Origin: Candidatus Anstonellales archaeon | Lineage (GTDB): Archaea > Micrarchaeota > Micrarchaeia > Anstonellales > J096 | Reading direction: 5' to 3' | Assembly: GCA_038890745.1 (NCBI GenBank) | Contig: JAWAFD010000002.1 | Coordinates: 163,327 to 227,326 of the forward strand | Length of the DNA stretch: 64,000 nt | Shown: piece after piece, positions 11,416-40,600 of the stretch | Layout: each line of letters opens with the position of its first letter | Numbering within the stretch: the first letter of the stretch is position 1 | Notes under the pieces: model-generated | Databases searched by the model: none | What the model saw: the letters and a program-made list of their open reading frames with translations, nothing else | What the model was told of the DNA's origin: nothing | Made by a program: the position numbers and the translations under genes

Positions 11416-11473
11416 GATTTTATTGTGTATAAAAATGTTTAAAAATATATATACTTTTTTCCCATTAAAAAGA

Positions 11474-11482
11474 TTTTTAAAC
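11474..11482 (+). promoter_or_regulatory. TATA-box-like TTTTTAAAC upstream of the 11511 gene; the mirror TATA (ATTTTTAAACA on the minus strand, ~11436-11446) serves the divergent PPR-like gene
   Basis: The motif lies ~30 nt upstream of the ATG, with AGGGGGAG SD-like sequence at 11501-11508. The same TTTTTAAAC-type box recurs upstream of many genes in the window. Confidence 0.45.
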
Positions 11483-11510
11483 ACTTTCTACTACAGCAAT
11501 AGGGGGAGAG

Positions 11511-21518: not shown

Positions 21519-23393
21519 ATGAAAAAAATTTTTATCCTTGCCTTGCTTTTCTGCCTTACTTTTGCCCAGTACTACCAAGTCTATCTTGTTCTTGAGAATG
21601 AAACCATCCACTCCCTTGTTTATGATAACCCATCATTTTCTTATGCAGATAACTCCATGGAAAACCCGAACATCTATGTCCGCGTTTGCGCCCTTAATGC
21701 GAGCGAGCTTCAGAACAAATGGGTCGCGCTTGTTTACGCAGACGGAACAAACGGCCAGTACATTGAAATAGACAACGGGCCCGTGCAAATAACCTCTGTT
21801 CCTCCAAGCTTGTGCGTTAATCTAGATGTGGACATTTCTTCTTTCAAAGCATGGTACCCATCCATCCCATTTGTGATAATTGCAGATAACAAAGCCCTTA
21901 CCTCCTCGCCTACTCGATGGAAGCTTTCCCAATCTCGCGGATGGCTTGTTGGCAATTATACCATGAACGCAACCAGAATAGGAAATACTGTTTATGTTAA
22001 TGTTACCGGCGCTGTTGATGATTCTTTTGCAACCTACATTGTTCCTGTTGTTGACTATCTTGTTGTTGGGACCGTTCAGAGCGATGGACTTACAACAACA
22101 GATACAAAAATAGTTAGGTTCAACCAAACAGCAACCCTTTCGCTCGGGGCTTACACAGGGAATTACACAATAATGATAAACGGGATAGGAGGAGAATTTC
22201 CACCTTATGTAAGAATAATTTCCCCACAGCCAACAACCTACCCACCCGGCGATATTCCTTTTATTTTTACAATAATAGAATTCGAGCCTTTGGATTCCTG
22301 CTGGTATGTTTTAGATAGCCGCGCCTACACCCTTCCTGATTGCCATGCTTCCTACATCCTTTCCGGCCTTTCTGCCGGCTCCCATTCCCTTTGCCTGTAT
22401 GCAAACGACACCTCGAACAGGATAGGAAGCGACTGCGTTTCCTTCTCAATCTCAGCTCCTCCTCCTCCTCCACCACCAGGTCCAGGAGGAATCGGAAAGC
22501 CACCCAAGCCACCTCCTCCACCCATCCCTCCTGCACCAACATTCAGAATAATTCCTGAGGAGCTTTTCCTCTACCTTGAGCTCATCTATCCTTATGAAGC
22601 TTCGGACACTTTCTCCCTTTGCGCCGATTATGCTCTCTCCAATATTGAATGCGAAATTTCCGGTCCATACGCAGAGTATTACTCCGTGGAACTCTCATCA
22701 CATTCCCTTAACAACTCCTGCATTAATGGGACTGTTTCTGTAAAATTTCCAGTTTCGATTGCGCTTGATATTGATGAAAACGAAAACCTCCTATACTGCT
22801 ATGCACAGTACGACAGCATTTCCTCTCTTGTTGCAAAGGGAAATGTGTATACTATTGTTCTAAAACCAGAGCTTGAATCCACAAACCTCTCATACTCTCT
22901 TTACATAGGTCAGGAGATAAACGCAACCCTCCCCATCACAAACATAGGAAAGGCAAACGCAACAAACATCACGGTTGAAACCTCTCCAAAATATGAAGAG
23001 TGGCTTGGTGCCTACACGATAGGGAATATAGGGGTTGGAGAAACCCATTTCCTCTCCATCCATATTAAAGTTCCAGATGACGCCCAGCCAGGAAAATACA
23101 GAATTCCGATTACTATTTCTGCAGAGAACGCGCGCGCAAAAACATATTATATAGAAATAACAGTAAAGCCAAAACCAGAGCTTATTACTTGCGCATTTGA
23201 TTTCAATCTTCTCGCTACTATCTGGCCATTAATCCTAGCAATGCTCCAGCCCATTGCTGTTTTTGAGTATTACCGGGAAGATAAAAAATGGAAGGAAAAA
23301 TCCCTCCGCCTCTCCTCCCTGAATGCCCTCATCCTTCTCATTGTTTGGCTGGTTATTTTCTACTTCATTGCCTCAAAATGCCTCCCTCTCTAA
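21519..23393 (+). CDS. secreted surface protein with a poly-proline linker, CARDB/NEW-like beta-sandwich and C-terminal TM anchor
   Basis: The signal peptide is MKKIFILALLFCLTFA. The linker is SAPPPPPPPGPGGIGKPPKPPPPPIPPAP. ..PITNIGKANATNITVE..GETHFLSIHIKVPDDAQPGKYRIPITISAE.. is the beta-sandwich region. C-terminal hydrophobic helices are present. Confidence 0.7.
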   Translation: MKKIFILALLFCLTFAQYYQVYLVLENETIHSLVYDNPSFSYADNSMENPNIYVRVCALNASELQNKWVALVYADGTNGQYIEIDNGPVQITSVPPSLCVNLDVDISSFKAWYPSIPFVIIADNKALTSSPTRWKLSQSRGWLVGNYTMNATRIGNTVYVNVTGAVDDSFATYIVPVVDYLVVGTVQSDGLTTTDTKIVRFNQTATLSLGAYTGNYTIMINGIGGEFPPYVRIISPQPTTYPPGDIPFIFTIIEFEPLDSCWYVLDSRAYTLPDCHASYILSGLSAGSHSLCLYANDTSNRIGSDCVSFSISAPPPPPPPGPGGIGKPPKPPPPPIPPAPTFRIIPEELFLYLELIYPYEASDTFSLCADYALSNIECEISGPYAEYYSVELSSHSLNNSCINGTVSVKFPVSIALDIDENENLLYCYAQYDSISSLVAKGNVYTIVLKPELESTNLSYSLYIGQEINATLPITNIGKANATNITVETSPKYEEWLGAYTIGNIGVGETHFLSIHIKVPDDAQPGKYRIPITISAENARAKTYYIEITVKPKPELITCAFDFNLLATIWPLILAMLQPIAVFEYYREDKKWKEKSLRLSSLNALILLIVWLVIFYFIASKCLPL

Positions 23394-23444
23394 AGTTCTG
23401 CTAAAAGGGAAAGATTTTTATATTTTTTTCCCTATTAATTGTAC

Positions 23445-24743
23445 ATGAATTTTGAGGAGGTGAAGGAGTATCTTCTGGATTTTCAGAAAAGAGAAATGCC
23501 TGAGATGGTGGAGAGAGAGCTTAGGGTCGATGGTTCCGGAAGGATAGTTTCAATAATAGGACCAAGAAGGGCCGGTAAAACATTTTTTATGTACCAGAAA
23601 ATGAAGGAGCTTATAAATTCCGGAAAGAAAAAAAGCTCCATACTTTACCTAAACTTTGAAGACCCGCGGCTTGTTGGAGTGAGTTTCAAAGACATCAAAG
23701 AGATAGTTAAATTACACTGGCAGCTTTATCCGGATTCGACGAATGAGCAATTATACATTTTTGTAGATGAACCGCAAAATGTTGAAGGATGGGAGGTTGC
23801 AGTAAGGGGGCTGCATGATGATGGTTTTGTTGTTTTTCTGAGCGGCTCAAGTTCTAAACTATTAAGCAGAGAAATAGCAACCTCTCTACGCGGCCGGACG
23901 ATCTCTTATACTCTCCTCCCATTTTCTTTTAGAGAGTTTATGAGAATGAAAAAAGTTTCTTTTGATACCAGTAGACTTGGCTCTAAAGAAAAGGCACTGC
24001 TAAATTCCCTCTTCGAGGAATATGTCGTGTTTGGCGGGTTTCCTGAGGTTATAAAAGCAGAAAAGAAAGAAGAAAAGGAAAGAGTACTGAGCGAATACTT
24101 CGATCTGGTTGTTTACCGCGATATTGTTGAACGATACAAGGTGAAAAACACCGCGCTCGTTAAATGGTTGATAAAGTCAACTCTTTCTTCTTTTTCAAAG
24201 GAGCTTAGTATCCATAAACTTTATCTCAATTTGAGATCTCAGGGGCTAAGCTTAAGCAAGAATACGCTGTATTCATATTTTTCGATGCTTGTAGACTCTC
24301 TTTTTGTTTTTCCAGTTTTCAGGTTTTCTTATTCAATAAGAAAAAGAGAGCTTTCTAAAGCAAAGGTTTATGCATGCGATGTTGGGTTCACAAAGCTTGT
24401 TGAGATCTCTCCAGAAAGAGGAAGGAAAATGGAGAATATTGTTTTCTTGGAACTTATGCGAAGAAAAAAACCTTTGGAAGAGATTTTTTATTGGAAAAAT
24501 CCTCAGAATAAAGAAGTCGATTTTGTCGTTAGAGAAGGAAGTAGGACAAAAAAACTCATTCAGGTTTGTTCTAACATTAGTGATATGGAAGTGAAAAAAA
24601 GAGAGGTGGGTGCTTTAATAAAGGCATCTGAAGAGTTGAGATGCAGTGATCTATCCATCATAACCGATAGATATACAGGGCAAGAGAGAGTAAAAAGAAA
24701 AAAAATAAGTTTTGTTTCCCTGCCGGAGTGGTTGCTTTCATAG
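23445..24743 (+). CDS. orphan AAA-type ATPase (COG1373-like: P-loop domain plus DUF4143-like C-terminal domain)
   Basis: Walker A is IIGPRRAGKTF and Walker B is LYIFVDEPQ. The C-terminal ..KEVDFVV..KKLIQV.. pattern fits the family. Confidence 0.75.
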   Translation: MNFEEVKEYLLDFQKREMPEMVERELRVDGSGRIVSIIGPRRAGKTFFMYQKMKELINSGKKKSSILYLNFEDPRLVGVSFKDIKEIVKLHWQLYPDSTNEQLYIFVDEPQNVEGWEVAVRGLHDDGFVVFLSGSSSKLLSREIATSLRGRTISYTLLPFSFREFMRMKKVSFDTSRLGSKEKALLNSLFEEYVVFGGFPEVIKAEKKEEKERVLSEYFDLVVYRDIVERYKVKNTALVKWLIKSTLSSFSKELSIHKLYLNLRSQGLSLSKNTLYSYFSMLVDSLFVFPVFRFSYSIRKRELSKAKVYACDVGFTKLVEISPERGRKMENIVFLELMRRKKPLEEIFYWKNPQNKEVDFVVREGSRTKKLIQVCSNISDMEVKKREVGALIKASEELRCSDLSIITDRYTGQERVKRKKISFVSLPEWLLS

Positions 24744-24777
24744 TTAATCTTTTAAACAGTTCTGTACATACTTGGTT

Positions 24778-27597
24778 ATGCGGGTGGGCATGAGAATAGA
24801 ATTCATCGTCCTGTCTTTACTTGTTCTTTTAGCCAGTACGTATGCTATCTCAGACTGTCAACAAATAACCGGAGAAAACCTTTCTCTTACTCTGGATAAC
24901 AACATAGACGCACAGGGGAATGATTGTTTTTACATACAAGGAATAAACATAACCCTGGATTGCAGAAACTACCTTATTTATAACGCTTCCACTGCAATTT
25001 TAGTAAACAACTCCCACATGATAAATATATCCAGGTGTAAAATAGAAAATTCAACAAATGGTATCATTCTTCAAGTCCAGACCCCAACAGGCTATCCCGA
25101 ATACCAAGATCAGTTAGTAAGAAGAAATACTTCGGCCATTCTAACCAGCATTACAATAAACAATGTAACAAATGGAATTCTCATGAACAGAACCCATCAG
25201 AATACGATAAGGTTCGCAAACATAAGAAATTCCCAGAATGCCATTTCCTTATTCTATTCTTATGCAAACATTATAGAAAATTCAACAATTCAAAACAACC
25301 AGCTTGGTATTTTCATATATGATGCTGCCGCCAACGGCTCGCAGGCAAACGCAACCCCAATACTCGCAAAAGCAAAAGGTAAAGGAGTTAAAAGCGTGGA
25401 CCCAGAGCCAGTAAACGACACTACTGTAATCCGAGGAAAGTACGGAAGCATAGTAAGGCACTGTACTTTTCAGAACAATTCTATAGGAATAGTTTTGAAT
25501 CAAACAGCAAACAATTCATTCTACAACAATCTATTCAACAACACCCAAAATGTTCTTTCAGATTCGTCTTCCAGCAATTTTGTTAATTACTGGAACTCTT
25601 CCTATGACTGCTCTCAAAGAAGCATAATAAACGGAATGTGCAGAGGAGGGAACTATTGGAATGATTATTATGGGTATGATGATGGAACTGGTTCTCCTCC
25701 TCATGATGTTTATTTTGATGATATTGGCGATACCCTTCTTCCATACATTCCAAACGGAGAAATTTCTGGGGATGAGCTTCCACTAACAAAAAACCTCCCA
25801 CCAGATTGGGTTGCGTATTGTAGACAGATTACCCAGCCAGGAACATATACACAAAAAAGAAACATCTATGGTGTTATCTCATCCTCAAACAAGAAGTGCA
25901 TAGAGGTTTTGGCTGACAACGTTACCCTCAACTGCGCCGGCTTCAACATCACAGATAACACGACCTATACAGATAGTTATGGAATTTACATTTCAAACTA
26001 CAACAATTTAACAGTTGCAAACTGTACTGTCCTTAATTACACAACCGGCTATTATGACAGAAATTCTTTCTATGGTGCCCTTTACAGAAATAACTTCTCA
26101 AACGACAGATACAATCTTTATTTTGATGTGGACACCTCGCCCTACCCAAACCAAACAGAACCATTCCTTAAAACGATCACAACAGACAACTATGTTTATG
26201 GAAGAAAAGTATATTACTTCATCAACGGCCGAACTCCTGATGGCTACACTTGGCCTCCTCCTTATGATGCAGGATTTGTTGCACTGGTTAATGGCCAGAA
26301 TATTGTTGCAACCGGCTACGATCTATACAACAACAGTCCAGAGATGATTTTTGTAAATATCTCCAACCTTGAAATAAAAGAGAACAAAATATGGAAATCC
26401 GGCGTTGGTGCATACGTTCTTTTCAGCGAGAATGTTTATGTAAAAAACAACAATTTCACAAACAACAGCCTATACGAGATTTTCATTACCTACTCAAATT
26501 ACACAAACATAACCAAAAACCTTTTCTACAACACTTCAGGATATTCAATACTACTTTACAGATGCGACAATAACGATATTTTCCTAAACAATGGAACAAA
26601 CTCAGGGTATCTAATTTCAGTTGCGTATGCAAACAACAGTTTAGCTCACGATAATTATGCAAACTATACGTCAGGCGGAATATGGTTCTCATATTCTACG
26701 TACAACAAAATATATTCAAATGAGCTCTGGCTTGTGTGCGGAGGGCAGGCAGTAATAGGAAGCTCAAACGTTAATTACACTTTTGTCTTTTCTAATACCG
26801 GAAGCAGCCGATGCACATCCACACATCAATTTATATATATAGTTGGCACCAACCCGTCCCCTTCATGGGCGTACTACGGTGAGGTATATAACAATACAAT
26901 CAAAAGATATCCCGGCGGAGTTACGTGGAATTCTGGGATTCATATAAACCGGGCGGGGTATTTAGTTGTCCATGATAATTACATTGAGGATGTACGGTAT
27001 AGTGGTAATAGCGTTGGCATTCAGTTTCCATACGGAGCCGGTCATATTACTTATAACAACACAGTGATAAATGCCAGCAAATGTATGAGGGCGTTCATCT
27101 CAAATTCCGAAACATCAAACAATACGTTCCGATACTGCGATATTGGTATAACGCTTGAATTTGCTACAGGCAATAGAATATACAATAACATGATACTGGA
27201 TAGCATTACATATGGTTATGATGATTATATCAATGGCAATTGGTGGAGCCTTGGTCATATAAACTGCTCCCGTGGGCCGAATATAATCGGTGGTCCATGT
27301 TGGGGAGGAAACTTTTATGGAAACTATTCCGGATGCGATTCTAATGGCGATGGGATAGGAGAGACGTCCTATCCAATAAATGGTAGTGCTTATGCCGTAG
27401 ACCCATACCCTCTTACAAACACCCCATGCAAATCTCAACCTCCACCCATTAAAGAACCAACCGAAATCAAACCCATTCAACCATCCCCAAAGCCTCTTCC
27501 CGCTCCGTCTGAGAAGAAAGACAGAAAACAGAACTCAACCTCTATTTCTGTAAATTCTACTGAAATTTCTTTACCAAGTTCCATCCCCATACACTAA
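24778..27597 (+). CDS. secreted right-handed parallel beta-helix (NosD/CASH/PbH1-type) surface protein
   Basis: It has a hydrophobic N-terminus and many ~22-aa Asn-rich rungs. It carries two cap motifs, GGNYWNDYYGYDDGTGSPPHDVYFDDIGDTLLPY and GGNFYGNYSGCDSNGDGIGETSYP, and a Pro-rich tail. Sequons are very dense. Confidence 0.8.
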   Translation: MRVGMRIEFIVLSLLVLLASTYAISDCQQITGENLSLTLDNNIDAQGNDCFYIQGINITLDCRNYLIYNASTAILVNNSHMINISRCKIENSTNGIILQVQTPTGYPEYQDQLVRRNTSAILTSITINNVTNGILMNRTHQNTIRFANIRNSQNAISLFYSYANIIENSTIQNNQLGIFIYDAAANGSQANATPILAKAKGKGVKSVDPEPVNDTTVIRGKYGSIVRHCTFQNNSIGIVLNQTANNSFYNNLFNNTQNVLSDSSSSNFVNYWNSSYDCSQRSIINGMCRGGNYWNDYYGYDDGTGSPPHDVYFDDIGDTLLPYIPNGEISGDELPLTKNLPPDWVAYCRQITQPGTYTQKRNIYGVISSSNKKCIEVLADNVTLNCAGFNITDNTTYTDSYGIYISNYNNLTVANCTVLNYTTGYYDRNSFYGALYRNNFSNDRYNLYFDVDTSPYPNQTEPFLKTITTDNYVYGRKVYYFINGRTPDGYTWPPPYDAGFVALVNGQNIVATGYDLYNNSPEMIFVNISNLEIKENKIWKSGVGAYVLFSENVYVKNNNFTNNSLYEIFITYSNYTNITKNLFYNTSGYSILLYRCDNNDIFLNNGTNSGYLISVAYANNSLAHDNYANYTSGGIWFSYSTYNKIYSNELWLVCGGQAVIGSSNVNYTFVFSNTGSSRCTSTHQFIYIVGTNPSPSWAYYGEVYNNTIKRYPGGVTWNSGIHINRAGYLVVHDNYIEDVRYSGNSVGIQFPYGAGHITYNNTVINASKCMRAFISNSETSNNTFRYCDIGITLEFATGNRIYNNMILDSITYGYDDYINGNWWSLGHINCSRGPNIIGGPCWGGNFYGNYSGCDSNGDGIGETSYPINGSAYAVDPYPLTNTPCKSQPPPIKEPTEIKPIQPSPKPLPAPSEKKDRKQNSTSISVNSTEISLPSSIPIH

Positions 27598-27682: not shown

Positions 27683-28396
27683 GTGAAAAGGATGAATGGA
27701 AAATATCTCTTGATAGGCTTTATGGCTCTCTTAGTCCTAGCAGGAATAGTGGCGGCCAGTACACCAATAAACGCAAGCGTTTCGGCAGGACCGCAGCAAA
27801 GATACGCAATACCACATGGTGCAGCAGGTTCTGTTACGACTGAAGGTGGAAACGTAACACAAGTAAACCTTACGGGTACGAACTCCTCTACAGAAAGATG
27901 GGCTGGCTTCTACGGAAACCTTACGGGTTCCAACTTGGTACTCGGTGACAGCTCCGGCAATGCATTCTACGCATGGGCAGTTGGTAATCCAAACGAACTT
28001 TGGAAGGTCTACGCTTCTACCCAGAATGATGTTAACTGGGCAAACCTTGCTGCTGGTCAATGCGAAGCGGGTACGAATGTGTACAATTGGGTGTTCAATG
28101 GTGCCTGGGCAGACAACTATACAAATACATTCACACATTCAGGAGCAGACACATTTGCAGATGCTACAATAACTGCAAACTATACATTGACCTATGAGCA
28201 TAACGGTGCTGAAACTTGGCCGACATACCATCTCCAGGATGGTACAGGAACTGATGATGATGTGTGGGCAGCAAAAGTTTTAACCACTGCAACTGCATTC
28301 AATGACGCAGCAGGTGTTGTGTACCAGCTCATGGTTCCTGCAAACCCAGCGGATAACACTTACGTGACCTATTACTTCTTCCTAGAAATAAACTAA
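27683..28396 (+). CDS. secreted stand-alone copy of the WAGFYGN-type module (candidate abundant surface or fibre subunit)
   Basis: The signal peptide is ..KYLLIGFMALLVLAGIVAAS. The mature part, TTEGGNVTQVNLTGTNSSTERWAGFYGNLTGSNLVLGD...YQLMVPAN...YVTYYFFLEIN, aligns by eye with the C-termini of the 3957- and 1563-aa proteins. The gene has its own TATA-like box and a T-rich terminator. Confidence 0.75.
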   Translation: MKRMNGKYLLIGFMALLVLAGIVAASTPINASVSAGPQQRYAIPHGAAGSVTTEGGNVTQVNLTGTNSSTERWAGFYGNLTGSNLVLGDSSGNAFYAWAVGNPNELWKVYASTQNDVNWANLAAGQCEAGTNVYNWVFNGAWADNYTNTFTHSGADTFADATITANYTLTYEHNGAETWPTYHLQDGTGTDDDVWAAKVLTTATAFNDAAGVVYQLMVPANPADNTYVTYYFFLEIN

Positions 28397-28410: not shown

Positions 28411-28436
28411 TTCCTCTTTTTTCTTTTTTTCCTTCT
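28411..28436 (+). terminator. T-rich terminator-like tract (TTCCTCTTTTTTCTTTTTTTCC)
   Basis: It lies 15 nt after the stop codon. The same CTTTTTTCTTTTTT-type tract follows the genes ending at 49135 and 61122. Confidence 0.45.
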
Positions 28437-28449
28437 TGATGCTGCATTT

Positions 28450-28503
28450 GTCGAAAAAATGAACAAAAATATTTGAATTCTGTCCAAAATTTCGACAACT
28501 TTT
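28450..28503. repeat. 54-bp direct repeat, left copy (GTCGAAAAAATGAACAAAAATATTTGAATTCTGTCCAAAATTTCGACAACTTTT)
   Basis: It is perfectly identical to 29741-29794. Its ends form a 7-bp inverted repeat (GTCGAAA / TTTCGAC). Confidence 0.95.
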
Positions 28504-28529
28504 TAAACCTTTCCCCATCCAAATCTCTC

Positions 28530-29741
28530 ATGGAAAACGAACGTATTTTTGAAAAATTATCGCTTGTCTTCACAACAAACCTTAGGATGGCAGAAAGTTT
28601 AGAGTACAAGAGATTTCTCTACCCTGTTTTAAAAAGCAAGATAGTAAAGAATAAGCTTATTCTACTTTATGGAGTAAGGGGGACGGGAAAAACAACCCTT
28701 ATGCTTCAGGTTGCATCTGAACTAATGAAAGAGGGAAAAAGAGTTTTTTATTTTCCTCTTGATCATTGGGTATTCTCCCTTTCAACTTTTTATGATTTTG
28801 TTGAGTTTCTATATAAAAAAGGAATAGAATATATTTTTGTCGATGAGGTGCACAAATACCCGAATTGGGTTCAAGAGATTAAAAATATATATGATGGGTT
28901 GGATGTGAAAATTCTTGCTAGCGGCTCAAACCCCTCTTTAATAATAAAGGGAAAATATGACCTTTCTAGACGGGTAATAGATCTTCAACTCCCCCCGCTT
29001 TCTTACAGGGAGTATATCGAAATGAAAACAGGAAAAAAATACATACCGCTTACGCTTGAAAAAATAGTAAATGAATGGGATTCTGTCCAGCGGACGTATC
29101 CATATGTTGATATTAGCGAATACATGCAGTACTCTATGCCATTTTTCCTAAGTACTGAAAGAGAGGAGTATGAAAAGAGTGTGATGAACATAGTTGAGAA
29201 AGTTGTCTATGAAGACCTTCTCTCGTATAATTTCAACACTACAACCATTCTTCATGCAAAATCGATCCTTGGGTACATAGCTTCCAACCCTGCTGGTGAG
29301 GTTAGCATTTCTTCAATAAGTGGAAGAATTGATGGTATGAGCAAGGGTAGTGTTGGTGAAGTTCTGAAAGCATTTGAAAGTATAGGGCTTATTCATTCTG
29401 TTCCTTCTTTGGTGCATGGTAAAGGTTTGCTTAGGCCCAACAAGAAATACTATCTTTCTCCTCCGTTCAGATGGTTTATATGCAAAATGAGTGGAAGGGA
29501 TTCAGATATAGGTAGCCTGAGGGAGGATTTTTTTGTTTCTCATCTTTTCAACAGGAAGGTGGAGTATCCTTCTGAGAAGGGTGAGCCTGATTTTATTGTG
29601 GATAGAAAATATGTTTTTGAGATTGGAGGAAAAACAAAGACAAAAAAGCAAATAATTGGAAAAAAGAATGCGTTTTTGGTAAAGGATGTAATGTTTTCGT
29701 ATGATTCTATTCCGCTGTTTCTGTTTGGCTACCTTTATTAG
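28530..29741 (+). CDS. orphan AAA-type ATPase (COG1373-like, P-loop plus DUF4143-like domain with a PD-(D/E)xK-like motif)
   Basis: Walker A is LLYGVRGTGKTTL and Walker B is EYIFVDEVH. The C-terminal GEPDFIVDRKYVFEIGGK fits a D...E-x-K nuclease-like pattern. The likely start is ATG 28530; the ORF track starts at a TTG inside the repeat. Confidence 0.75.
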   Translation: MENERIFEKLSLVFTTNLRMAESLEYKRFLYPVLKSKIVKNKLILLYGVRGTGKTTLMLQVASELMKEGKRVFYFPLDHWVFSLSTFYDFVEFLYKKGIEYIFVDEVHKYPNWVQEIKNIYDGLDVKILASGSNPSLIIKGKYDLSRRVIDLQLPPLSYREYIEMKTGKKYIPLTLEKIVNEWDSVQRTYPYVDISEYMQYSMPFFLSTEREEYEKSVMNIVEKVVYEDLLSYNFNTTTILHAKSILGYIASNPAGEVSISSISGRIDGMSKGSVGEVLKAFESIGLIHSVPSLVHGKGLLRPNKKYYLSPPFRWFICKMSGRDSDIGSLREDFFVSHLFNRKVEYPSEKGEPDFIVDRKYVFEIGGKTKTKKQIIGKKNAFLVKDVMFSYDSIPLFLFGYLY

Positions 29742-29794
29742 TCGAAAAAATGAACAAAAATATTTGAATTCTGTCCAAAATTTCGACAACTTTT
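29741..29794. repeat. 54-bp direct repeat, right copy
   Basis: Identical to 28450-28503. Confidence 0.95.
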
Positions 29795-29873
29795 GGTATC
29801 CCGACCCTGAACGACGAAGAACAAAAGCCAACCTTTTTATACCTATCCTCGCAATTTTCCTTGGGTGTGATGC

Positions 29874-31631
29874 ATGAATGCGAAAGTGCTATTAGTTATA
29901 TTAGCGTTGGTTCTGACGCTGGTTAACCCTACGCAATATGTAACCAACTCGAAGGATTGGAGGGATGTCTACCTGACCCTGCATTTTGCAGACCTTTCCG
30001 GAGAACAATCATTTTTTATCCGGAATGAGCTGCACGGAACAAAGGTTCTTCCTTACTTTATAAGCAAAAGCGAACCGGTAGTAATAGTTGAATCAGAAAC
30101 AGAACCATACGTACCAGATTACGAATCCTACCTAAGAACCCTCGGATTTAAAAATGTAACAACATTAAAGACCCAACACCCATACATTCTTCAGGAACAA
30201 TTTTTAGAAATGCTAAAAAATAACAGCGTTCCTTTAACAGGTTTTGTTCTTATTGATGATGCTTATGGATATGATGCGGTAAGCGTTGCCCAGTATGCTT
30301 TCAAATACAAAAAATGGGTTTTGTTCACAACCAAAGAAAACAGGAACAGGATTTCATCTCTTTTGGAAGCAAACCCTGGCTATTCCATTCTTTTCTACGG
30401 ACACATGCGAAGAGAAATCGCAGATACCCTTTCAAAATTTAATGTTGAAAAAATAGACAACCAGAGCAGGTTCAAAAATAATATGGAGCTTGCGGAAAGG
30501 ATGGTTAAGACAATAAATAGCCAGCAGATTCTTCTTACAAGCGGCGAGTACATAGAGCACGAGATCATGACCGGTGGGGATGGGAACGAAGTAATTCTTT
30601 TTGTTTCTTCAGACCGCTACCCGGAGGATATAATAAATTTCATACGAAAGCACAACATAAAATATGTTATCGTAGTTGGAAATGAGCTCATAAACACAGC
30701 AAGGGAGGTTAGGGAAGCGATGGGAGGAGAGATTACAGTAATAGCAAAGTATGGAATGGGTTTTGTGGGAGTTGCAGAACTGCAGGGCCAGATATATGCG
30801 TTGGACCTTTTCTACCTACCAAAATATCAGTTTAACCTTACTCCCATATCCGCAGTGTACAATCCTACTGCAAAAGAGCTTTACATCCGATTCAAAAACA
30901 ACGGAAATGTAGGGAATTATTTCTACACTTCTGCGCCCATTGTTTTTGAGGATAGAACGATCACAACTGTAATAGATAAAGAAAACCAATACCTAGAGCC
31001 AGGTGATGAGAAGGTAATAGTCTACAGCGTGGATCTAACAGATTATATCAACAAAAAAATGTATGCACACCTTTATACTAAATATGGTGAGTCGCCTTAT
31101 GATATGATGTATTATGTGCTTGAACCGGGAGCGGTGAGACCACCGTATAAACTACCGATTCTTGTTCAAGAATTTGTTGATAATTCAGAGCTTGAGATAA
31201 CAGATGGTTGGTACGATGACTTCTCAAAAGAATACATAATTCAAGTAAGCAACGTAGGTCCTGTTGATGCATACGCTAGAGGAGAGCTTAGAAATATTAT
31301 AATAGATGGTATTCCAACAACAAAAATCCAGAACGGCACGACTTTTATAAGAAAAGGAGAGACCTCTTCCATTCCAATAAAATTAGAGTTAACGGAAGAG
31401 GATAAAGAGGTCAATAAGGTTGTCCATACCGTAGTCTACTACGGTGAAAAAGAGGATACTTTGATAAAAAGAGCAGAGAAGGATATTGAGCTAAAAGGAA
31501 ATCCATGCATCCCGTCCATATTGTTGATAGTACTGCTGTTGATAGCTCTTATCATCGGCTACTATGTATGGAGAAAGAGAAAGGGGCATCATAGGGCAAA
31601 GGCTCACCACGAACACGCAGAAAGTAAGTAG
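29874..31631 (+). CDS. secreted protein with a C-terminal TM anchor and basic/His-rich tail; N-terminal part with three alpha/beta repeats, C-terminal beta-sandwich-like region
   Basis: The signal peptide is MNAKVLLVILALVLTLVNP. The C-terminus is IPSILLIVLLLIALIIGYYVWRKRKGHHRAKAHHEHAESK. The repeated pattern (..DWRDVYLTLHFADLSG.., ..GYDAVSVAQYAFKYKKWVLFT.., ..ILFVSSDRYPEDIINFIRKHNIKYVIVVGN..) is reminiscent of cell-wall-binding-repeat-2 domains; that assignment is a low-confidence inference. Confidence 0.65.
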   Translation: MNAKVLLVILALVLTLVNPTQYVTNSKDWRDVYLTLHFADLSGEQSFFIRNELHGTKVLPYFISKSEPVVIVESETEPYVPDYESYLRTLGFKNVTTLKTQHPYILQEQFLEMLKNNSVPLTGFVLIDDAYGYDAVSVAQYAFKYKKWVLFTTKENRNRISSLLEANPGYSILFYGHMRREIADTLSKFNVEKIDNQSRFKNNMELAERMVKTINSQQILLTSGEYIEHEIMTGGDGNEVILFVSSDRYPEDIINFIRKHNIKYVIVVGNELINTAREVREAMGGEITVIAKYGMGFVGVAELQGQIYALDLFYLPKYQFNLTPISAVYNPTAKELYIRFKNNGNVGNYFYTSAPIVFEDRTITTVIDKENQYLEPGDEKVIVYSVDLTDYINKKMYAHLYTKYGESPYDMMYYVLEPGAVRPPYKLPILVQEFVDNSELEITDGWYDDFSKEYIIQVSNVGPVDAYARGELRNIIIDGIPTTKIQNGTTFIRKGETSSIPIKLELTEEDKEVNKVVHTVVYYGEKEDTLIKRAEKDIELKGNPCIPSILLIVLLLIALIIGYYVWRKRKGHHRAKAHHEHAESK

Positions 31632-34600
31632 TGGTGGAGATGAATAAAAAAACAGCTGTTGCTCTGCTTGTTGCGATTGCGCTAGTGTTTGCTCTAACCA
31701 GCGAATACTCTATTTCCATCGACCGCTCAGAGTACTATGTTGGGGAAGCAGTAAACATTACAGTTACTATGCCCCTGAAGGTTTATGCAGTAAAGCTTTA
31801 CATAACGCTTCCCTCAAATGAGACTGAGGAAACCCCTGCTATAAGATGCCGTACCGGCCTATGCCTGTACCAGTATTTCCCGGATCAACCCGGCCATTAT
31901 ATAGTTGGTTTGTTTGACAGAAACATTTCGGTTGAGTTTGATGTTCTGCGGAATGAGAATGAAACAGCTCCTCCCCTGATTAACATCACACCCACCCTCC
32001 CCAGACTTTCTTACTATGATGAAAGAACAAACCTTACCTTCTTCTACTATCTCATCCCAACAGAGGAGGGATACGGAGACCTTATAATAGAAAATATCAC
32101 TCCCCATCTTCCAGCTCTTGTTCTTAACAATTTCTCTCTAAATTCTTCGCTATTCATCCATGCCTATGAGCTTAATATTTCAGAAAACCAAACCATTCTT
32201 AAAATAAAAAATTATTCCCAAAACATAAGTGAAAATATTTCTACGGAAGCAACCAACATTACAGAAAATCTTACGGAAAACATAACCGAAAATACTAGTG
32301 AAGAAATCGCGCTGGAAATAACGGAAACAAAAAACACCACAGAAGAAAACTTTTCTGAAATCATCAACGAAAACAACACAGGTTTAAACGAGACAGAAAA
32401 TATCACTGAAAATTTAACTGAAATAGAAAGCGAGACAGAGATCAGGAATCTTTACAATGTTATTTTTGTGAATCTTTCCGGCACGAACTTTTCCTATGCA
32501 GAATACTACATTCTATTGGAATACGATACTCTTCTTTCCTGCGTCAATTTTACAAATGAAACCTGCGCGCTCTGGGAAAAAGCAAACTCCACACAAGATG
32601 GAATTTTTGCAATTCTAAACTCAACCTCAGATTTCCTCGTTGCCGGTCAGCTTAACATATCCTATCCATTAGACATATCCGAGAATATTTCCTTGAATGT
32701 TTCGGAAGAGAATATCTCTGAGATAAACATCACTCCTCTTGAGGACGAGGTATACAAACAGCTTGAGATTGTTTTCATAGATATGGGTTTTGATTATTAT
32801 GAGGATTTTTGGACCTATGATTCTGTTGAAGAGGAGGTTCAGGAGCTTTTAATACAGAATGCATTCTTTGTTGTTTATGATGAAAAAGGAGAGGGAAGGA
32901 TACCTGAATACATCATCTCTATGGTTGATGAAAAGCATGCGAATGTTGGTATTTTTAAACCCATCCAATCTGTTCCAGTCATCACATTTTATTCACTCTA
33001 TTTAGATAAAGAGTTGAAAATGAGCGCCTATGATATAAACGACTCTGCGTTTGTTTTAGATACATATTATCTCTTTTATCCGTACGGCATAGTTTATGCT
33101 GAGAAAAAAGGCGAATATCTCTATTCCTGCGAAGATTTTTCCTATGACTACACATGTAGGACAGGGTTTAAAGAACTCAACTATACGCTACAAAAGGGCA
33201 AAGCGGTATTTAACATAACAAAGGAACAAAAACTATTTTTATGGACAGAAAAACCACTTACTATTCCTGGTGGGGAACAAAACGCCACAGAGCTCCTTCC
33301 CTCTATCAATATAAACATTTCAGATACTCGTGGAAAACAAAAAAATTATACCTACGAAATTTTAGAATACACTGGAAGATATGCCTCAGTAACTTTCTAT
33401 TTCTCACCAGAAGAGCGGATTCATTCTATTACGCTTTACAACCTTTCTCTAAGCGGAGAGCCTTTCATATTGTTAGATGAATTTAGTAATAGTATTCTCT
33501 TGGTTGACCTTTCTAACTCTGATTTTGATTATTCTGTTGTGATTGCAAAGGATTATGGAGGAGACCTGTACAAGTGTAAAGAGTTTGATAAAAACTACTC
33601 CTGCTCAGGTGGATGGGAAAAATGGCCTTATTTTGCATCCGGTGGATACATAGTATTTAAACTCCTTCCTGAAGACCCGCTCTTTATTCAAACAATAAAT
33701 CTATCCACAGTAACTACTCTTAACATAATTGATCCGTTCGGCAATCCTGTAAACGGCTCCTATGAGATTTTGGACAATTCAACCGGTCTTGATGTCCAAA
33801 TAAATTTCAACTCCGGCCAGGTTTTGCAACTAACTATTTATGATATCCCAGATGATGGATATTCTCACACAATAGTTGTTGGGGATACTTTTGTAAATGA
33901 TTCAGAAAACAACATGACCAATACTTTTGTAATAGACCTCTCAAACATTTCCTATAATTATTCTAATGTTGTTGCGAGAAATTCTGGAGGAGATTTATAT
34001 AAATGTTCCACATTTTCTTCAAACTTCTCCTGCCTTTCTTCCTGGGAGCTCTATCCATACACAAATAATGGAGTAAATCGTTCGTTTAATTTAACAGAAG
34101 GAGATCCGATGTTTGGATATGAAAAAGAAGGAAACATTTCTATTTTTGATATTACTTCATGTACTGCGATTACAACTTCGGGCTATCACACTCTTGATAA
34201 TAACTTAGTAGGGAATACAAGTAATTCGATAGGTGGCTATTATTATTGTATTGCTATAAGGGTTAGTAATGTTGAGCTTAATTGTCAGAACTACGAGATA
34301 AGAGGAAACTCTGCAGGGAGTACTGTCGGCATAATAATATACGACCCTCCCCTTGCTATCAATCCTTTAACAAATGTTACAGTAAGGAACTGCAATGTCT
34401 TAAACTACTCAAGAAACCTTATGATAGATTCTGCTTTGACAACCGATCATTCTCAAATTACCATCCGAGATTCTAGGTTTAACCTATCTTCTGGCAATTC
34501 AATAAGAGTTGAGGATTGCGATGATTCTAATTTTACGAATTTGGTTGTTGATAGAACAAGCGATGGGGGTATACTATTCCTGACCGATTCTACTAATAAT

Positions 34601-37600
34601 AGAGTAGTAAATTTCACTGGCTACAACTCAGCAAATTTTTTCATCATGGACTACAGCGGTTCAAACAACTTTACAAATATAACACTAAGAAACGGTGGAT
34701 GGGCAGGGATATGGATAAGAGGAGTGGATAATTCAATAGTAGATGGTTTTGATATTCAAAACATAACAGAAAGCGGCGGAGTGGTATATGGTGGTATTTA
34801 TGTTTCAAGTGGTGGCGATAATAATATAATAAGAAACGGAAAAATATACGATTTGGTTACCTATGGAATTCAAGTTAACGGAAGTTATAATAATACTATA
34901 ACAAATGTTACAATATATAACTCTACTTCAGAAAGTGGAATATTCATTTATGAGGATACCGCAGATAACAACAAAATATACAATTCAACAATTTATAGGA
35001 ATGCAGATTATGGAATATATGTAAATGGCGCAGATGACCTCCTTATATATAATACCAATATAGAAAACCATACCTCAGGATACGAGGTTTATCTTTATGC
35101 TCCAAGCAGTCTTGTTTCTGTAAGCAATATTTTAATTCAAAACAGCCGGTTTGTAAACAACAAATCCATAAATACGATGGGAATTAATGCAATATATGGC
35201 TCCAACATTACAGTTGATAACTCAACCTTTACAGGAATTTATATTGGTGCGTATTTCAACCAATCAAATACAATTACTATTAAAAATTCAACATTTTTGA
35301 GAAACGGAAAAGCAGGGATATTTTTTGATTCCACAACTAGCTCTTCTGTTTTGGATAACGATATAAACGATACCTATTGGACTTCTGATGACCCAGGAGG
35401 AATTTATCTAGGATTCTGCGATTGGAATTCAGTAAATTTTTACAAATTTGAAGGAGGAATAATTCTCTGCTACTCAAACTATACCCAAATTTCTTATAAT
35501 TATTTAAAAGGAAATGGAACATGCACAGACAATTGTATCGCTAACCACAATGGCTGCGAAGCAGGAATTTTTACTTACAACTCAAAACTAAACAATATTA
35601 CTTATAACATTTTCAGAAACTCAGGAGACAATTACGATTCTTTATATTTCTACTCTTACGATACAAACTATTGGTATAACGATCAAAACGGCACAGACCC
35701 ATTAACAGGAAACAACAATGTAAATGATGGAATAAAATTAGACAATTCAAGAGGATTTAACATTTCTCACTCTAATTTCTCAAATAATCGTGAGTGGGGA
35801 ATTTTTTTGACAAACTCTAACGATACTTACATCTACAACAATACTGCAAGTTATAATACCAATGTGGGTATTCGTTTAGCTAGCTCAGCAAACAACACAG
35901 TAATCTACAACACAGCATTTAAAAATCAACAAGGATTTAGAGTTGAACAATTAGAAGCTATTAATAATATTTTCAAAGATAATACAGCATATAGCAACTC
36001 TTACTACGGTTTCTACCTTTACTTTAGCTCCAACAACACCCTTTCCAATAACACAGCATATAGCAACTCTTACTACGGTTTCTACCTTTACTTCAGCTCC
36101 AACAACAACACCCTTTCCAATAACACAGCATATAGCAACTCTTACTACGGTTTCTGCCTTTACTTCAGCTCCAACAACAACATCCTCTCCAACAACACTG
36201 CATATAATAACAATATTTATGGAATTTATCTTTATCAGAATGCAGACAACAACACAATTGTCAATAACACAATATATAACAATTCAATTTATCAACTACT
36301 TATTAATGAAACCTATCCTTCTTATGATAACAAAATATACAACAACATCTTCAACGCTTCAGCGGGCCAAGGAGTAGTCTACGATTCAGGAACAAACTAT
36401 TGGAACACCTCCTATGACTGCACAGGAACAAACATAATAGGTGGAGACTGCATAGGAGGAAACTTCTACTCTAACTACACAGGAGCTGATGATGGTTCAG
36501 GCGCAACCTATCCTCATAATATTGCAGGGGATGGAATTGGAGACAATCCAGATGACTACTATATCTATGGAGGAAGCAACATTGACTACCTTCCATTAAC
36601 AAATCTTAGAACTGCATGCTTCTATGCTGATACCTCAAACACAGTCTATACTTTAACAAGAAACCTCTATGGAAACAAATCAGACAGAATCTGCATTACA
36701 ATAAATGCCTCAAACATTACTATAGATTGTAATGGCTACAATATTACAGGAACATACCCATACACAGGCTACACAATAGGAATAGGAAACTATGACTCAA
36801 GAAACAATGTTACAATCAAGAACTGTTACATAACCAACTACACATTTGGGATATACGCAAACTTATCAAACCAATACAACATTACAAACAACTCATTAGT
36901 AGCAAACGGAAAAGCAGGAATTTTCTTTGATTCAACCGAAAACTCCACAATCTGGGATAATGATATAAACGATACCTATTGGACTTCTGATGACCCAGGA
37001 GGAGATTACTTCCAATTCTGCAACTGGAGTGCAGGGAATTTCTCAAGATTTGAAGGAGGAATAATTCTCTGCTCCTCAAACTATACCCAAATTTCTTATA
37101 ATTATTTAAAAGGAAATGGAACATGCGGTGGTGGCGGACCTGGCTGTGGGTCTAACCACAATGGCTGCGAAGCAGGAATTTTTACTTACAACTCAAAACT
37201 CAACAATGTCACCCACAACACATTCAGAAACTCAGGAGACAATTACGATTCTTTATATTTCTACTCTTACGATACAAACTATTGGTATAACGATCAAAAT
37301 GGCACAGACCCATTAACAGGAAACAAAAATGTAAATGATGGAATAAAATTAGACCATTCAAGAGGATTTAACATTTCTCACTCTAATTTCTCAAATAACT
37401 ATGAGTGGGGAATATTCTTTACATGGTCAAATGACTCCTACATATACAACAATACTGCAAGATATTGTGTAGGCTCAGGTGGAGTTGGTATTCGTTTAGC
37501 TCGCTCAGCAAACAACACAGTAATCTACAACACAGCATTTAAAAATCAAGAGGGGTTTAGAGTTGACTACTCAGAAGCTATTAATAATATTCTTAAAGAT

Positions 37601-40600
37601 AATACAGCATATAACAACTCATGGTATGGTTTCCACCTTTCCTCCAGCTCCAACAACACCCTCTCCAACAACACTGCCTACAGCAACTCTTACTACGGTT
37701 TCCACCTTTACTTCAGCTCCAACAACACCCTCTCCAACAACACTGCATATAATAACAATATTTATGGAATTTATCTTTATCAGAATGCAGACAACAACAC
37801 AATTGTCAATAACACAATATATAACAATTCAATTTATCAACTACTTATTAATGAAACCTATCCTTCTTATGATAACAAAATATACAACAACATCTTCAAC
37901 GCTTCAGCGGGCCAAGGAGTAGTCTACGATTCAGGAACAAACTATTGGAACATTTCCTATGACTGCACAGGAACAAACATAATAGGTGGAGACTGCATAG
38001 GAGGAAACTTCTACTCTAACTACACAGGAGTGGATGATGGTTCAGGCGCAACCTATCCTCATAATATCTATGGAGATGGGATAGGAGACAATCCAGATGA
38101 CTACTATATCTATGGAGGAAGCAATGTTGACTATCTGCCATTAACGAACAACCAAACATTGTGCTTCTATGCTGATACCTCAAACACCGTATATACTTTA
38201 ACAAGAAATCTCTATGGAAACAAATCAGATGGAAACTGTATTACCATAGTTGATTGGACTACAAACATTACAATAGACTGCAATGGGTATAATATTACTG
38301 GTTGGGGTGTAGGAAAGGGCATATTCTCTGCCTATTCAAGCCACAATACTATAAAGAACTGCAACATAAGAAACTATACCTATGCGATGGACTTAAGGGT
38401 AGGACAAAACATTTCAGTTTTCAACAATAACATTACAAACAATACAAATGGAATTGCATTGATTGTAGACATAAAACATTCAAGGCTTTACAATAACTAT
38501 TTCTATGATAACACTGGAAGCAGTTTTTACATGGTATATGGTTGCGATAATGTAAGTTTTTACAACAATACGATTGAAAAAAGTGGTGGTTGGGCTATTT
38601 CTCTCAGGGATACTACTACAAATTCAAGAATAGAAAACAACACTATTTTTAATGGAGATAATGTTGGTATTGGTCTTTATCCCAGCGACACTCTAAACAA
38701 TACAATAAAAGGAAATAGCATATATAACCAAGGTTCATATGGTATATATCTTAGTTCTGGCACTAACAATAACACAATTTCAGATAATATTGTTTATAAC
38801 ACTACAAACTACCAAATTGCTATATCTTCTTCTAGCGACAACCTTATCTACAACAACATCTTCAACGCTTCAGCGGGCCAAGGAGTAGTCTACGATTCAG
38901 GAACAAACTATTGGAACATTTCCTATGACTGCACAGGAACAAACATAATAGGTGGAGACTGCATAGGAGGAAACTTCTACTCTAACTACACAGGAGTGGA
39001 TGATGGTTCAGGCGCAACCTATCCTCATAATATCTATGGAGATGGGATAGGAGACAATCCACCAAACTATTCTATATACGGAGGAAGTAACTGGGATTAT
39101 TTACCACTTACCAATAACATAACTTATGCAAGATGCTTTTATGCAAACATTTCAAACACTGTTTATACGCTATCAGGAAATCTCTATGGAAACAAATCAG
39201 ACAGAATCTGCATTACAATAAATGCTTCAAACATTACAATAGATTGCAATGGATATAATATTACTGGCAACCACTCGCTTACTGAAAACACTATAGGAAT
39301 AGGAAGCTATGTTGGATGGGAAAATGTTACGATACAAGGCTGTCATGTGAGTAATTATACATACGGCGTATATGCGTATTCGTTTAATAACACGCTAATT
39401 GATGAACTGAATTCTATCAGAAATCATTTTGGAATTTACCTCAATCAAACAACGAACTCAAACATTACAAACAGCAAGATAGAAGTTTATAATGAAACCG
39501 CATGGAGTAGAGGAATCTATCTAGTAAATTCAAGCGGAATAAGAATTTCATCTTCTCATATAAACCGAACAGGTTTAACCTCTGCGCCATGGGCGATTGG
39601 AATTATGCCGTGCGCTACAAACGATACTATAATTGAAAGTTCAAACTTTACAGATAGACTAACAAGGTCTATATTTGTAAGCATATGCAGAGAAGTCGAC
39701 GGGACAGAATTCCAAGCACCGACCTATAATCTTACAATAAAAGATAATCATTTCTGGAATACAGAAACTGTTATAGCCCTATGGGTTAATTATAACACTT
39801 CAATAATCAATAACACAATTGAGTATTACAGAGGATATGGAATTGTTTCTGGGTATTTAGGTCTGCCAGGTGAATATTGGGATTTGCTCATAGAGAATAA
39901 TACAATAAGGAACGCTACTAATTGTCTAGATGACCCATCCTACTCAGGCCATATGACCGGGATATACATAGATACAAACAGCGGAGGATGGACGGTTAGG
40001 GGAAACAGAATAGAGTACATGCCTACATTGGGAATAGATTTGGATGGAGTTGGAGGGTATTCTTATGATATGCTTTTTGAAAATAATGTGTTCAATCATA
40101 CTGGAGAGAATGATTATGGAGCGGGATGTAATCCAACTCCAAATATGGGTGGCGTTTATTTTGGAGGGATTGAAAATTCAACAGTGCAGAACAATATTGT
40201 TGAGAATTTTGGTTCATCGATTGGAATAAATTTTTGGTGGAGGGAAAACCAAAATGTTTTGGTTCAGAATAATACTGTTTTCAATGGGAATGCAACGGGA
40301 ATTGGAGGGTCTGGAACTCAGAATAACATAACAGTTCGGAATAATACTGTTAGTTTTGCCCGAGCAGGTATTGGATTCAGTTCTACAAGCAATTCAGCTT
40401 TTTATAATAACACAGTACACGATAATACTAAAGAAGGTATCGCTATTTCAAACGGGTATAATAATACATTGCAGGACAATCTTGCCTATGCGAATATGTA
40501 CGGCATTTCGTTGAACAATGTTGTTAACCATACTTTGTTGAATAACAATATGACCAACAACCGATATAACTTCTATATAGAAGGTTCCAGTGTTCCACAC

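Follow-up and report, generated by a model that had tools for sequence, protein, structure and literature searches.

PDC-S01, an ATPase fused to a PD-(D/E)xK domain, appears in a 2026 survey as the fourth commonest "defence" system of prokaryotes, enriched in Archaea, often transferred and made of a single gene, and it stands there as a candidate defence whose validation is pending (PMC12988326). DUF4143, a domain of the same kind of protein, was placed in the PD-(D/E)xK superfamily in 2012 (PMC3424549). The locus described here lies in a 64-kb stretch of DNA (64,000 nucleotides, from now on the window) of Candidatus Anstonellales archaeon, a member of the Micrarchaeota (DPANN) from a hot spring, in which a gene of the COG1373/PDC-S01 family is bracketed by two perfect copies of a 54-bp direct repeat (from now on R) and forms, together with them, a cassette. 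The gene family and its status as a candidate defence were known, while the flanking repeats, the boundaries of the unit and its insertion polymorphism are provisionally considered new, as a limited literature search found no description of flanking repeats, unit boundaries, self-mobility or strain-level insertion polymorphism of PDC-S01/COG1373.

Both ATPases encoded in the window match PDC-S01 and appear to share its architecture of a P-loop ATPase plus a PD-(D/E)xK domain, and there are, in addition, several described types of element with which the cassette can be compared. The insertion sequences IS1634 and IS1549 generate long insertion repeats of variable length (8-514 bp) for which no mechanism has been established (PMC2266710), and the cassette resembles them in being inserted with long direct repeats that vary between copies. 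However, these insertion sequences have a DDE transposase and terminal inverted repeats, whereas the cassette has neither and encodes a fusion of an AAA+ ATPase and a putative PD-(D/E)xK nuclease domain; unlike theirs, moreover, the repeat of the archaeal cassettes abuts the TATA box and the stop codon of the gene. Free-standing homing endonuclease genes are similar in that a single nuclease gene with its own promoter occupies a syntenic spacer and is present or absent among relatives. Nonetheless, homing consists in copying into a cognate empty site by repair, normally without long direct repeats such as those of the cassette, and homing endonucleases lack the AAA+/winged-helix part, while no cognate cleavage site is known for the cassette. 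Elements bounded by attL and attR (i.e., those of tyrosine or serine recombinases and the Xer-dependent integrative mobile elements, IMEX) have in common with it the perfect bounding repeats and a possible precise excision to a circle, but the cassette lacks a recombinase gene as well as a tRNA or dif-like target, related cassettes share no att sequence, and an attB is missing from the relatives. Finally, Orc1/Cdc6 initiators and their origin recognition boxes come to mind, given that the predicted fold of the cassette protein is closest to ORC4 and Orc1/Cdc6 and its gene lies beside repeats with two motifs. In contrast to these initiators, and to RuvB-type motors and PD-(D/E)xK resolvases, the cassette protein carries a fused putative nuclease domain, and the likeness is one of fold and layout only.

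Layout of the cassette and of its repeats

R (the 54-mer GTCGAAAAAATGAACAAAAATATTTGAATTCTGTCCAAAATTTCGACAACTTTT) occurs in the window in two exact copies (Table 1); no third copy was found in it on either strand with up to three mismatches allowed, and 100 shuffles of the sequence gave no match to the 54-mer. Together with the unique segment that follows, R makes up a unit of 1291 bp, and the sequences 3' of the two copies diverge immediately (TAAACC... versus GGTATC...). The final four T's of the left copy belong to the TATA box of the ATPase gene, and the placement of this box (TTTTTAAA) would fit an archaeal promoter with a leaderless mRNA. An earlier note, made from the letters of this DNA, had described two identical 54-bp copies enclosing exactly one COG1373-like ATPase gene, with a right copy that begins at the last base of the stop codon and a left copy that abuts a TATA-like box, the right flank being different. 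All of this is borne out: a single open reading frame (ORF) lies between the repeats, the G of its TAG codon is base 1 of R, and TTTTTAAA stands at the left junction while GGTATCCC follows the right copy. The suggestion that the insertion brought or retained a promoter also agrees with the TATA box that the cassette has of its own at the junction between repeat and gene.

Table 1. Positions of the cassette, of its parts and of related features (window coordinates unless a contig is named; R, 54-bp repeat).
Feature	Position	Strand	Remarks
Whole strain-specific block	28431..29807	+	19 nt, R, gene, R and about 13 nt
Left R copy	28450..28503	+	in the intergenic spacer, 54 bp 3' of the TAA (28394-28396) of the upstream gene and of a T-rich terminator
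TATA-like box TTTTTAAA	28499..28506	+	bridges R and the unique segment, about 26 bp 5' of the ATG; predicted from the sequence
Unique cassette segment, 1237 bp	28504..29740	+	promoter/leader (26 bp) and the ATPase ORF without the last base of its stop codon
ATPase-nuclease gene, 403 amino acids (aa)	28530..29741	+	likely ATG at 28530, TAG at 29739-29741; COG1373/PDC-S01
Right R copy	29741..29794	+	54/54 identical to the left copy; followed by GGTATCCC; no TATA box
Sister-strain gene for a 355-aa protein	L009 594-1661; L008 4832-5899; L010 1070-2137		corresponds to window 28431-29807
Second COG1373/PDC-S01 cassette	23382..24813	+	gene 23445-24743, 432 aa, AAA_14 + DUF4143

The termini of R are inverted (GTCGAAA and TTTCGAC, 7 bp, or 8 bp counting TT/AA) and enclose a central GAATTC, both as previously described, and, set against random segments of the locus, such termini are rare (P=0.004). 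In addition, R holds two related motifs, GTCGAAAAAAT and GTCCAAAATTT, 32 bp apart. Two other views of R were rejected. As a DNA hairpin it was not significant (z=-1.24), and it does not contain the 3' end of the upstream gene, since the read-through into R that is seen in a second metagenome-assembled genome (MAG GCA_038894355.1, L001) is a derived stop-loss single-nucleotide polymorphism (SNP). In that MAG the TAA stop of the upstream gene is changed to GAA at 28394 (L001 position 3346), and the resulting ORF gains 22 codons that give a hydrophobic tail ending in KK, with a TGA within the left 54-mer. The TAA is ancestral, being kept in four related versions of the site (L007, L009, L113 and L114).

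The encoded protein matches AAA_14 (PF13173; 1.1e-25, 90.6 bits against a cut-off of 27) over residues 41-162, with the Walker A motif GVRGTGKTT and the Walker B motif FVDEVH, and has a winged-helix region, a C-terminal PD-(D/E)xK-type motif (PDF...FEIGGKTK) and the family-conserved C-terminus LFGYLY*. In the alignment, D354, E364, G366, G367 and K368 are invariant, which gives the motif D354...E364-x3-K368 in the C-terminal domain. No match to PF13635 (DUF4143) was obtained for it at E<=0.01; over its full length, however, it can be aligned with homologues in which PF13635 is found, and its modelled C-terminal domain is beta-rich. The end-to-end alignment extends to thousands of COG1373 proteins from bacteria and archaea, most of them with DUF4143, the nearest relatives beyond its own cluster being only 43-44% identical. 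The PDC-S01 profile of PADLOC (PDLC04787) recognises both this protein (2.7e-36) and the second ATPase of the window (1.2e-104). In searches with an AlphaFold2 model (pLDDT 89.7), the top Foldseek matches were ORC4, Orc1/Cdc6 and the archaeal AAA+ protein SSO1545 (PDB 2fna), followed by RuvB and DnaA. As modelled, the protein combines an initiator-type (Orc/Cdc6-like) AAA+ domain, a winged helix and a PD-(D/E)xK nuclease motif.

Assembly support and read depth

The order R-gene-R is also found in L001, an independent MAG with 11 SNPs over 10.5 kb, and it recurs in three metagenome runs (X1-X3). Depths were taken from Logan unitigs (k=31) of hot-spring metagenome runs, in which the 54-mer forms a node of its own, with a depth of 129.8 in X1 (flanks, 63.2 and 56.2; cassette, 51) and of 15.3 in X2 (versus 9.5, 9.2 and 7.2). 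The depth of R is thus about twice that of the flanks in both runs, which makes it a two-copy sequence and not a dispersed repeat. The order of the four arms around R is not fixed by a k=31 graph, which on its own would look the same for an integrated cassette and for an empty site accompanied by a circle; it is because of the two longer assemblies and of a depth near 1:1 in three samples that the cassette is taken to be integrated. The ratio of cassette to flank depth is 0.78-0.9 for the window and 0.87-1.37 for a related cassette of another Micrarchaeota MAG (L081), both within extra-Poisson noise, and in L081 the shared core of the repeat again stands at about twice the depth of the flanks.

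These data bear on the view that nothing has moved at all, and that the arrangement arose by local duplication or slippage, from a dispersed repeat resembling a miniature inverted-repeat transposable element (MITE) or a repetitive extragenic palindrome (REP), or as an assembly artefact. An artefact is suggested by the length of R itself (54 is a common assembly k of 55 minus one) and by the order of the four arms, which the k=31 unitigs leave unset. However, two independent assemblies with SNP differences show the same arrangement, R has two copies in 64 kb and about twice (not more) the depth of the flanks in two runs, and comparison with seven other genomes or contigs identifies the gene as an insertion. 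We regard this view as highly improbable.

Some variation in depth was observed for the L081 cassette (L081 2841-4165), which stood at 14.3 against 10.5 for its flank in run X5 and at 7.8 against 9.0 in run X6, both from one study, and in run X11 a 169-bp contig joins the end of the L081 gene, via the repeat, to the start of the gene, along a path that the k=31 graph permits. Such shifts and such a contig are compatible with copy-number variation or circles, and also with noise or graph paths.

Insertion polymorphism at the site

The cassette sits between two surface-protein genes, for a 231-aa protein upstream and a 585-aa protein downstream, and the same site is found in several relatives. 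In a JGI contig with about 77% DNA identity and synteny over at least 13 kb (L007) there is no ATPase gene at the site, and the two neighbouring genes are only 99 bp apart. The site is empty too in three genomes that were found via the 585-aa neighbour (L113, L114 and L115; 78-83% aa identity in this gene, as for L007), so that in all four the neighbouring genes are adjacent, with spacers of 99-131 bp. A sister strain with about 95% DNA identity in the flanks, represented by run X4 (L009) and by two MAGs from NCBI (L008 and L010), carries a different gene in this place, whose 355-aa product has a signal peptide, is anchored at its C-terminus and matches no Pfam family. Homology to both L009 and the genomes with an empty site ends after a T-run at 28430 and is found again from about 29808. 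The ATPase gene forms a discrete cassette of recent insertion, absent from the seven genomes or contigs compared (L007, L113-L115 and L008-L010), a strain comparison that the earlier note had called for. The insertion is considered recent because the copies of R are perfectly identical while the strains differ by up to 5%. As a separate observation, the 355-aa gene of the sister strain is followed by a copy of the terminator-like sequence TAATCC...CTTTTTCTTTTTT, as is the upstream gene, and the spacer looks like a hotspot for gene gain or replacement.

Neither R nor anything similar to it is present in any of the five related versions of the site (four empty and one with the alternative gene). 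From the T-run to the conserved AACGACGAA block, relatives have 15-27 nt, whereas a site holding one R would need 88 nt. The search for an empty site with a single copy thus ended with five sites that all lack R, and this bears directly on the origin of the repeat. In one explanation, that of a long target-site duplication, R would be pre-existing spacer sequence, and a cassette of about 1237 bp (from the TATA box to the stop codon) would have been inserted at opposite-strand nicks 54 bp apart, which would become duplicated as the gaps were repaired; the nicks would possibly be symmetric, at the half-sites GTCGAAA/TTTCGAC, and the stagger would range from about 10 to 190 bp across the family. 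A length of 54 bp exceeds the usual target-site duplication of a transposon and was judged too long for an ordinary one, in line with the earlier note, and the five related versions of the site have neither R nor room for it. The precedent of IS1634 and IS1549, with their variable duplications of 8-514 bp (PMC2266710), speaks for such an origin, as do the repeats of other loci that are presented below. On balance, a long target-site duplication appears rather unlikely for the window.

Search for integration machinery

No integrase or transposase domain was found among the ORFs scanned across the window, which also contains no tRNA, and no tRNA target was found. Transposases of the DDE, HUH, tyrosine, serine and Cas1 types gave no match, the Pfam and NCBIfam matches being of ATPase type only; a weak IstB-like match of the 403-aa ATPase covers just the P-loop, and an IS1634-family DDE transposase has no match in the cassette. 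By inspection, there are no terminal inverted repeats between the ends of the unique segment, the sole inverted repeat being that within R. Regarding further copies, a 22-nt core of R had no exact match in the genomes of 185,579 species (one each) or in IMG/VR, which is what the proposed search for the 54-mer outside the population yielded. The 64-kb window holds one copy of the cassette, with no other member of its cluster known; elsewhere in the family, units of 1245 bp (82-85% identity) and of 1483 bp (98.9% identity) recur in different contexts. The 54-mer is not a conserved att site, since homologous ATPase genes elsewhere are flanked by unrelated repeat sequences. A viral origin was rejected, IMG/VR holding only four full-length homologues, none of them with convincing flanking repeats.

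Two outlines of the proposal that the repeats are the attL and attR of a site-specifically integrated cassette can be told apart: the discrete insertion stands, whereas classical site-specific integration is not supported, as no integrase, transposase, tRNA or single-copy R was found. A less classical version is Campbell-type integration, in which a circle with the gene and one R would recombine with a chromosomal R through a recombinase provided in trans (e.g., a host Xer-type enzyme or a provirus integrase) or through homologous recombination after transfer between strains. Perfect direct repeats are the expected trace of an att-type or single-crossover integration, and two homologues of the survey described below (P0002 and P0003) both lie after the 3' end of an ABC ATPase gene, as if targeting it, while the repeat-ATPase array of another locus (L060) resembles tandem integrations at one att site. 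Nevertheless, the cassette has no recombinase gene in it or near it and no tRNA, no relative has an attB-like single R, and the 22-nt core lacks an exact match in species genomes or viral contigs. Furthermore, this route would explain the spread to sites that bear R and not the origin of the first R-gene-R, and we consider it quite improbable.

Flanking repeats across the family

The upstream and downstream DNA of 80 homologue loci was compared (31-38% identity, many phyla; mostly bacterial MAGs, two archaeal). Ungapped scores did not exceed 13 for mismatched upstream/downstream pairs and were 15-109 in about 13 of 73 real pairs. With a blastn criterion, flanking direct repeats were found at 12 of 63 testable ATPase genes versus one of 97 neighbouring ORFs of at least 250 aa, and that lone "control" positive is another AAA_14 + DUF4143 gene, which leaves a corrected contrast of 12-13/64 ATPase genes versus 0/96 neighbouring non-ATPase ORFs (Fisher P ~1e-4). 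The repeats are 20-190 bp long and 80-100% identical, differ in sequence from locus to locus and are present in two copies within each locus, and neither conserved termini nor a target consensus were seen at their boundaries. Bracketing by repeats was shown to be a family-wide trait that is specific to PDC-S01/COG1373 ATPase genes and affects about one in five of them, and this specificity is a further argument against an arrangement that arose without mobility. The opposite holds for one locus (L013), whose flanking "repeat" is a high-copy dispersed element.

L013 had been a candidate for a showcase of long duplication (222 bp, 97.7% identical) and was dropped owing to its high copy number by read depth. 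Its 222-bp sequence (L013 2661-2882 and 4202-4640) comes from a repeat that reaches up to about 9000x in soda-lake metagenomes, versus 20-60x for the flanks; judging from contigs, this repeat may be arranged in tandem units of about 241 bp, and the left copy is missing from a related strain that does carry the ATPase. When an empty site of L013 was sought via the flanking sigma-54 regulator, which belongs to a huge family, no orthologue was found.

The closest homologue, P0003 (L004), is bracketed by 20-26 bp that encode the ...EAYLGE* end of the upstream ABC ATPase gene; these bases are repeated directly after the ATPase stop, where the right copy re-establishes the operon junction to the following gene. 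P0002 and P0003 are 71% identical, and each immediately follows the 3' end of an ABC ATPase gene, the order of genes differing between the two. In L060 (380-3420), two different COG1373 genes stand in tandem, and a sequence of 100-200 bp is partly copied before, between and after them, an array (repeat-ATPase1-repeat-ATPase2-repeat) that looks like successive insertions at one site.

Closer to the window, the three archaeal cassettes have a common anatomy, with repeats of 54 bp (window), 62 bp (L081) and 57 bp (L034): the left repeat reaches to a TATA box and ends 25-29 bp ahead of an ATG that looks leaderless, and the stop codon is followed within 0-4 nt by the right repeat. Inverted repeat termini are found in all three (P=0.004 for the window, 0.012 for L081 and 0.04 for L034), while the bacterial repeats have none (combined P=0.085). 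A discrete unit can also be delimited in Bacteroidota, where three loci with unrelated flanks (L040, L059 and L060) share 1245 bp at 82-85% nucleotide identity, which begin 54-55 bp upstream of the ATG and extend 2-3 nt past the stop codon. As this unit ends by the stop codon, the right end of the mobile unit would be the stop codon, which agrees with the start of the right repeat in six loci. The 54-bp upstream part of the Bacteroidota unit carries two TTGCT-N9-AGCAA motifs 32 bp apart, and the best internal repeats of the window R and of the repeats of L034 and L081 are likewise spaced by 32-33 bp.

Another pair of units was observed in a single strain of Persicobacter psychrovividus, on the plasmids pPP8 (L091 2286-3767) and pPP9 (L093 2001-3481), where 1483 bp that are 98.9% identical occur in different contexts and comprise the ATPase gene with 209 bp upstream and 70 bp downstream. 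Over approximately the first 90 bp, they correspond to the 3' end of a hypothetical gene, which pPP6 also has, without the ATPase. These two units have no flanking repeats and are uninformative on duplication.

The window itself contains a second cassette of the family (Table 1), 5 kb upstream of the first, whose ATPase is 28% identical to the 403-aa protein. It is absent from L007, L113 and L114 and present in the sister strain (L008), and a short imperfect duplication lies on either side of it (AAAGTTCTG at about 23394-23402 and AAACAGTTCTG at about 24754-24764). Two independent family cassettes are hence found within 6 kb, each lying between surface-protein genes and sharing their orientation.

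Origin of the repeats and possible mechanism

The best model, which we put forward tentatively, is that of a recent single-gene mobile cassette whose own control region, R, is repeated at both ends, and in which the PDC-S01/COG1373 protein would be the cargo and probably also the engine. R is most likely the upstream control region of the cassette, with two motifs of a protein-binding type before the TATA box, and stands again after the stop codon. A cassette-derived R is favoured because the repeat is absent from related sites, abuts the TATA box and matches the upstream part of the Bacteroidota unit in length and spacing. The integrated form would then be one 1291-bp unit (R, promoter and ORF) plus a terminal redundancy of 54 bp, and the unit would pass via an intermediate, circular or permuted, that has R directly between the stop codon and the TATA box. 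The encoded ATPase-nuclease would bind R and cut, and the duplication might result from opposite-strand nicks at the inverted termini of R (GTCGAAA/TTTCGAC) followed by fill-in or, alternatively, from copying the unit slightly beyond one length. Recombination between the copies of R could, in turn, excise the gene precisely.

Several points weigh against this model. The repeats of L004, L078 (60 bp) and L027 (40 bp) include the 3' ends of neighbouring host genes and that of L034 overlaps the end of a host gene by 10 bp, and host gene ends within repeats indicate that these are derived from the target, which favours target-site duplication for the family. The duplication of about 10 bp at the second cassette is single-copy in the empty site of L007. 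The motif pair of R is weak when taken alone (8/11 identity; P=0.5 versus shuffles), and only its 32-bp spacing agrees with the other cases. The model does not account for the strain-specific 19 nt and approximately 13 nt outside the repeats, and the survey is heterogeneous, given the high-copy dispersed repeat of L013. As for circles and empty sites, no junction of either was demonstrated in the Logan k=31 contigs of X1-X4: one contig of X3 "goes back 1291" (from the end of the gene through R to its start), which is a path that the k=31 graph permits. Lastly, the action of the ATPase-nuclease on R is something that we infer.

Target-site duplication would account for the host gene ends in L004, L078, L027 and L034, for the duplicated bases of the second cassette that are single-copy in L007, for repeat sequences that are unrelated between loci and for the inverted termini of the window R, L081 and L034. 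It is less readily reconciled with the position of R, which is that of an operator, with a length and a 32-bp spacing like those of the element-borne Bacteroidota region, and with the bacterial repeats, in which inverted termini are missing. For the window, we tentatively place a control-region origin of R slightly ahead of a duplicated target, although a single property of the enzyme, namely to nick opposite strands tens of bp apart in either donor or target, could be behind both. Under every reading, the two perfect copies are an obvious substrate for recombination that would remove the gene precisely, as had been foreseen in the suggestion that the repeats could loop the gene out.

A more general proposal, which we consider unlikely, is that the PDC-S01/COG1373 genes make up a new class of autonomous mobile elements, each consisting of a single gene, whose protein (an Orc/Cdc6-like AAA+ ATPase fused to a PD-(D/E)xK nuclease) would bind a two-site region by its own promoter, cut there and/or in the target with a long stagger, and move or copy its own gene without a DDE, HUH, tyrosine, serine or Cas1 enzyme, leaving repeats of tens to hundreds of bp.

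Other features of the window

Further features of the window lie apart from the cassettes. A 524-aa protein with pentatricopeptide (PPR) repeats (Pfam PPR, 4.7e-81) is encoded on the minus strand at 9910-11484, and its gene is built from eight to ten tandem DNA repeats of 102 bp with 86-95% identity; to find a PPR protein in an archaeon is unusual, as such proteins typically belong to eukaryotic organelles. The first 440 nucleotides (1-440) are non-coding, with runs of CCCCC/GGGGG and a unit of 35-53 nt (...TAAGATAGGGGGTGGAAGAGGCAGGGGGT...) in three direct copies and one inverted copy, a layout that is reminiscent of clusters of origin recognition boxes. A giant surface protein of the NosD/beta-helix type (3957 aa, with many N-glycosylation sequons) is encoded at 31631-43504 and flanked by more giant beta-helix genes, and its gene contains internal segments of 1.5-1.6 kb that are duplicated with up to 99% DNA identity (e.g., 36175-36474 and 37720-38019). 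Finally, a 358-aa protein encoded at 55344-56420 combines an archaeal ATPase_2 domain with an MCM-type C-terminal winged helix, and is an AAA+/winged helix-turn-helix protein that does not belong to COG1373.

Concluding remarks

Discrete one-gene units, their presence or absence at the level of strains and the repeats that bracket about one fifth of them provide a handle on how PDC-S01 spreads, and suggest an undescribed way of moving for a very common gene. An ATPase-nuclease of the initiator clade may itself be the mobilising enzyme and, if this is true, it would represent a new mechanism of DNA transposition or integration. In that case, the abundance of PDC-S01 and its embedding in other systems would partly reflect selfish insertion and not immunity, with a bearing on the defence predictions that are made through "guilt by embedding". 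For Candidatus Anstonellales archaeon, the insertion of such cassettes explains a strain-level polymorphism in its cluster of giant surface-protein genes.

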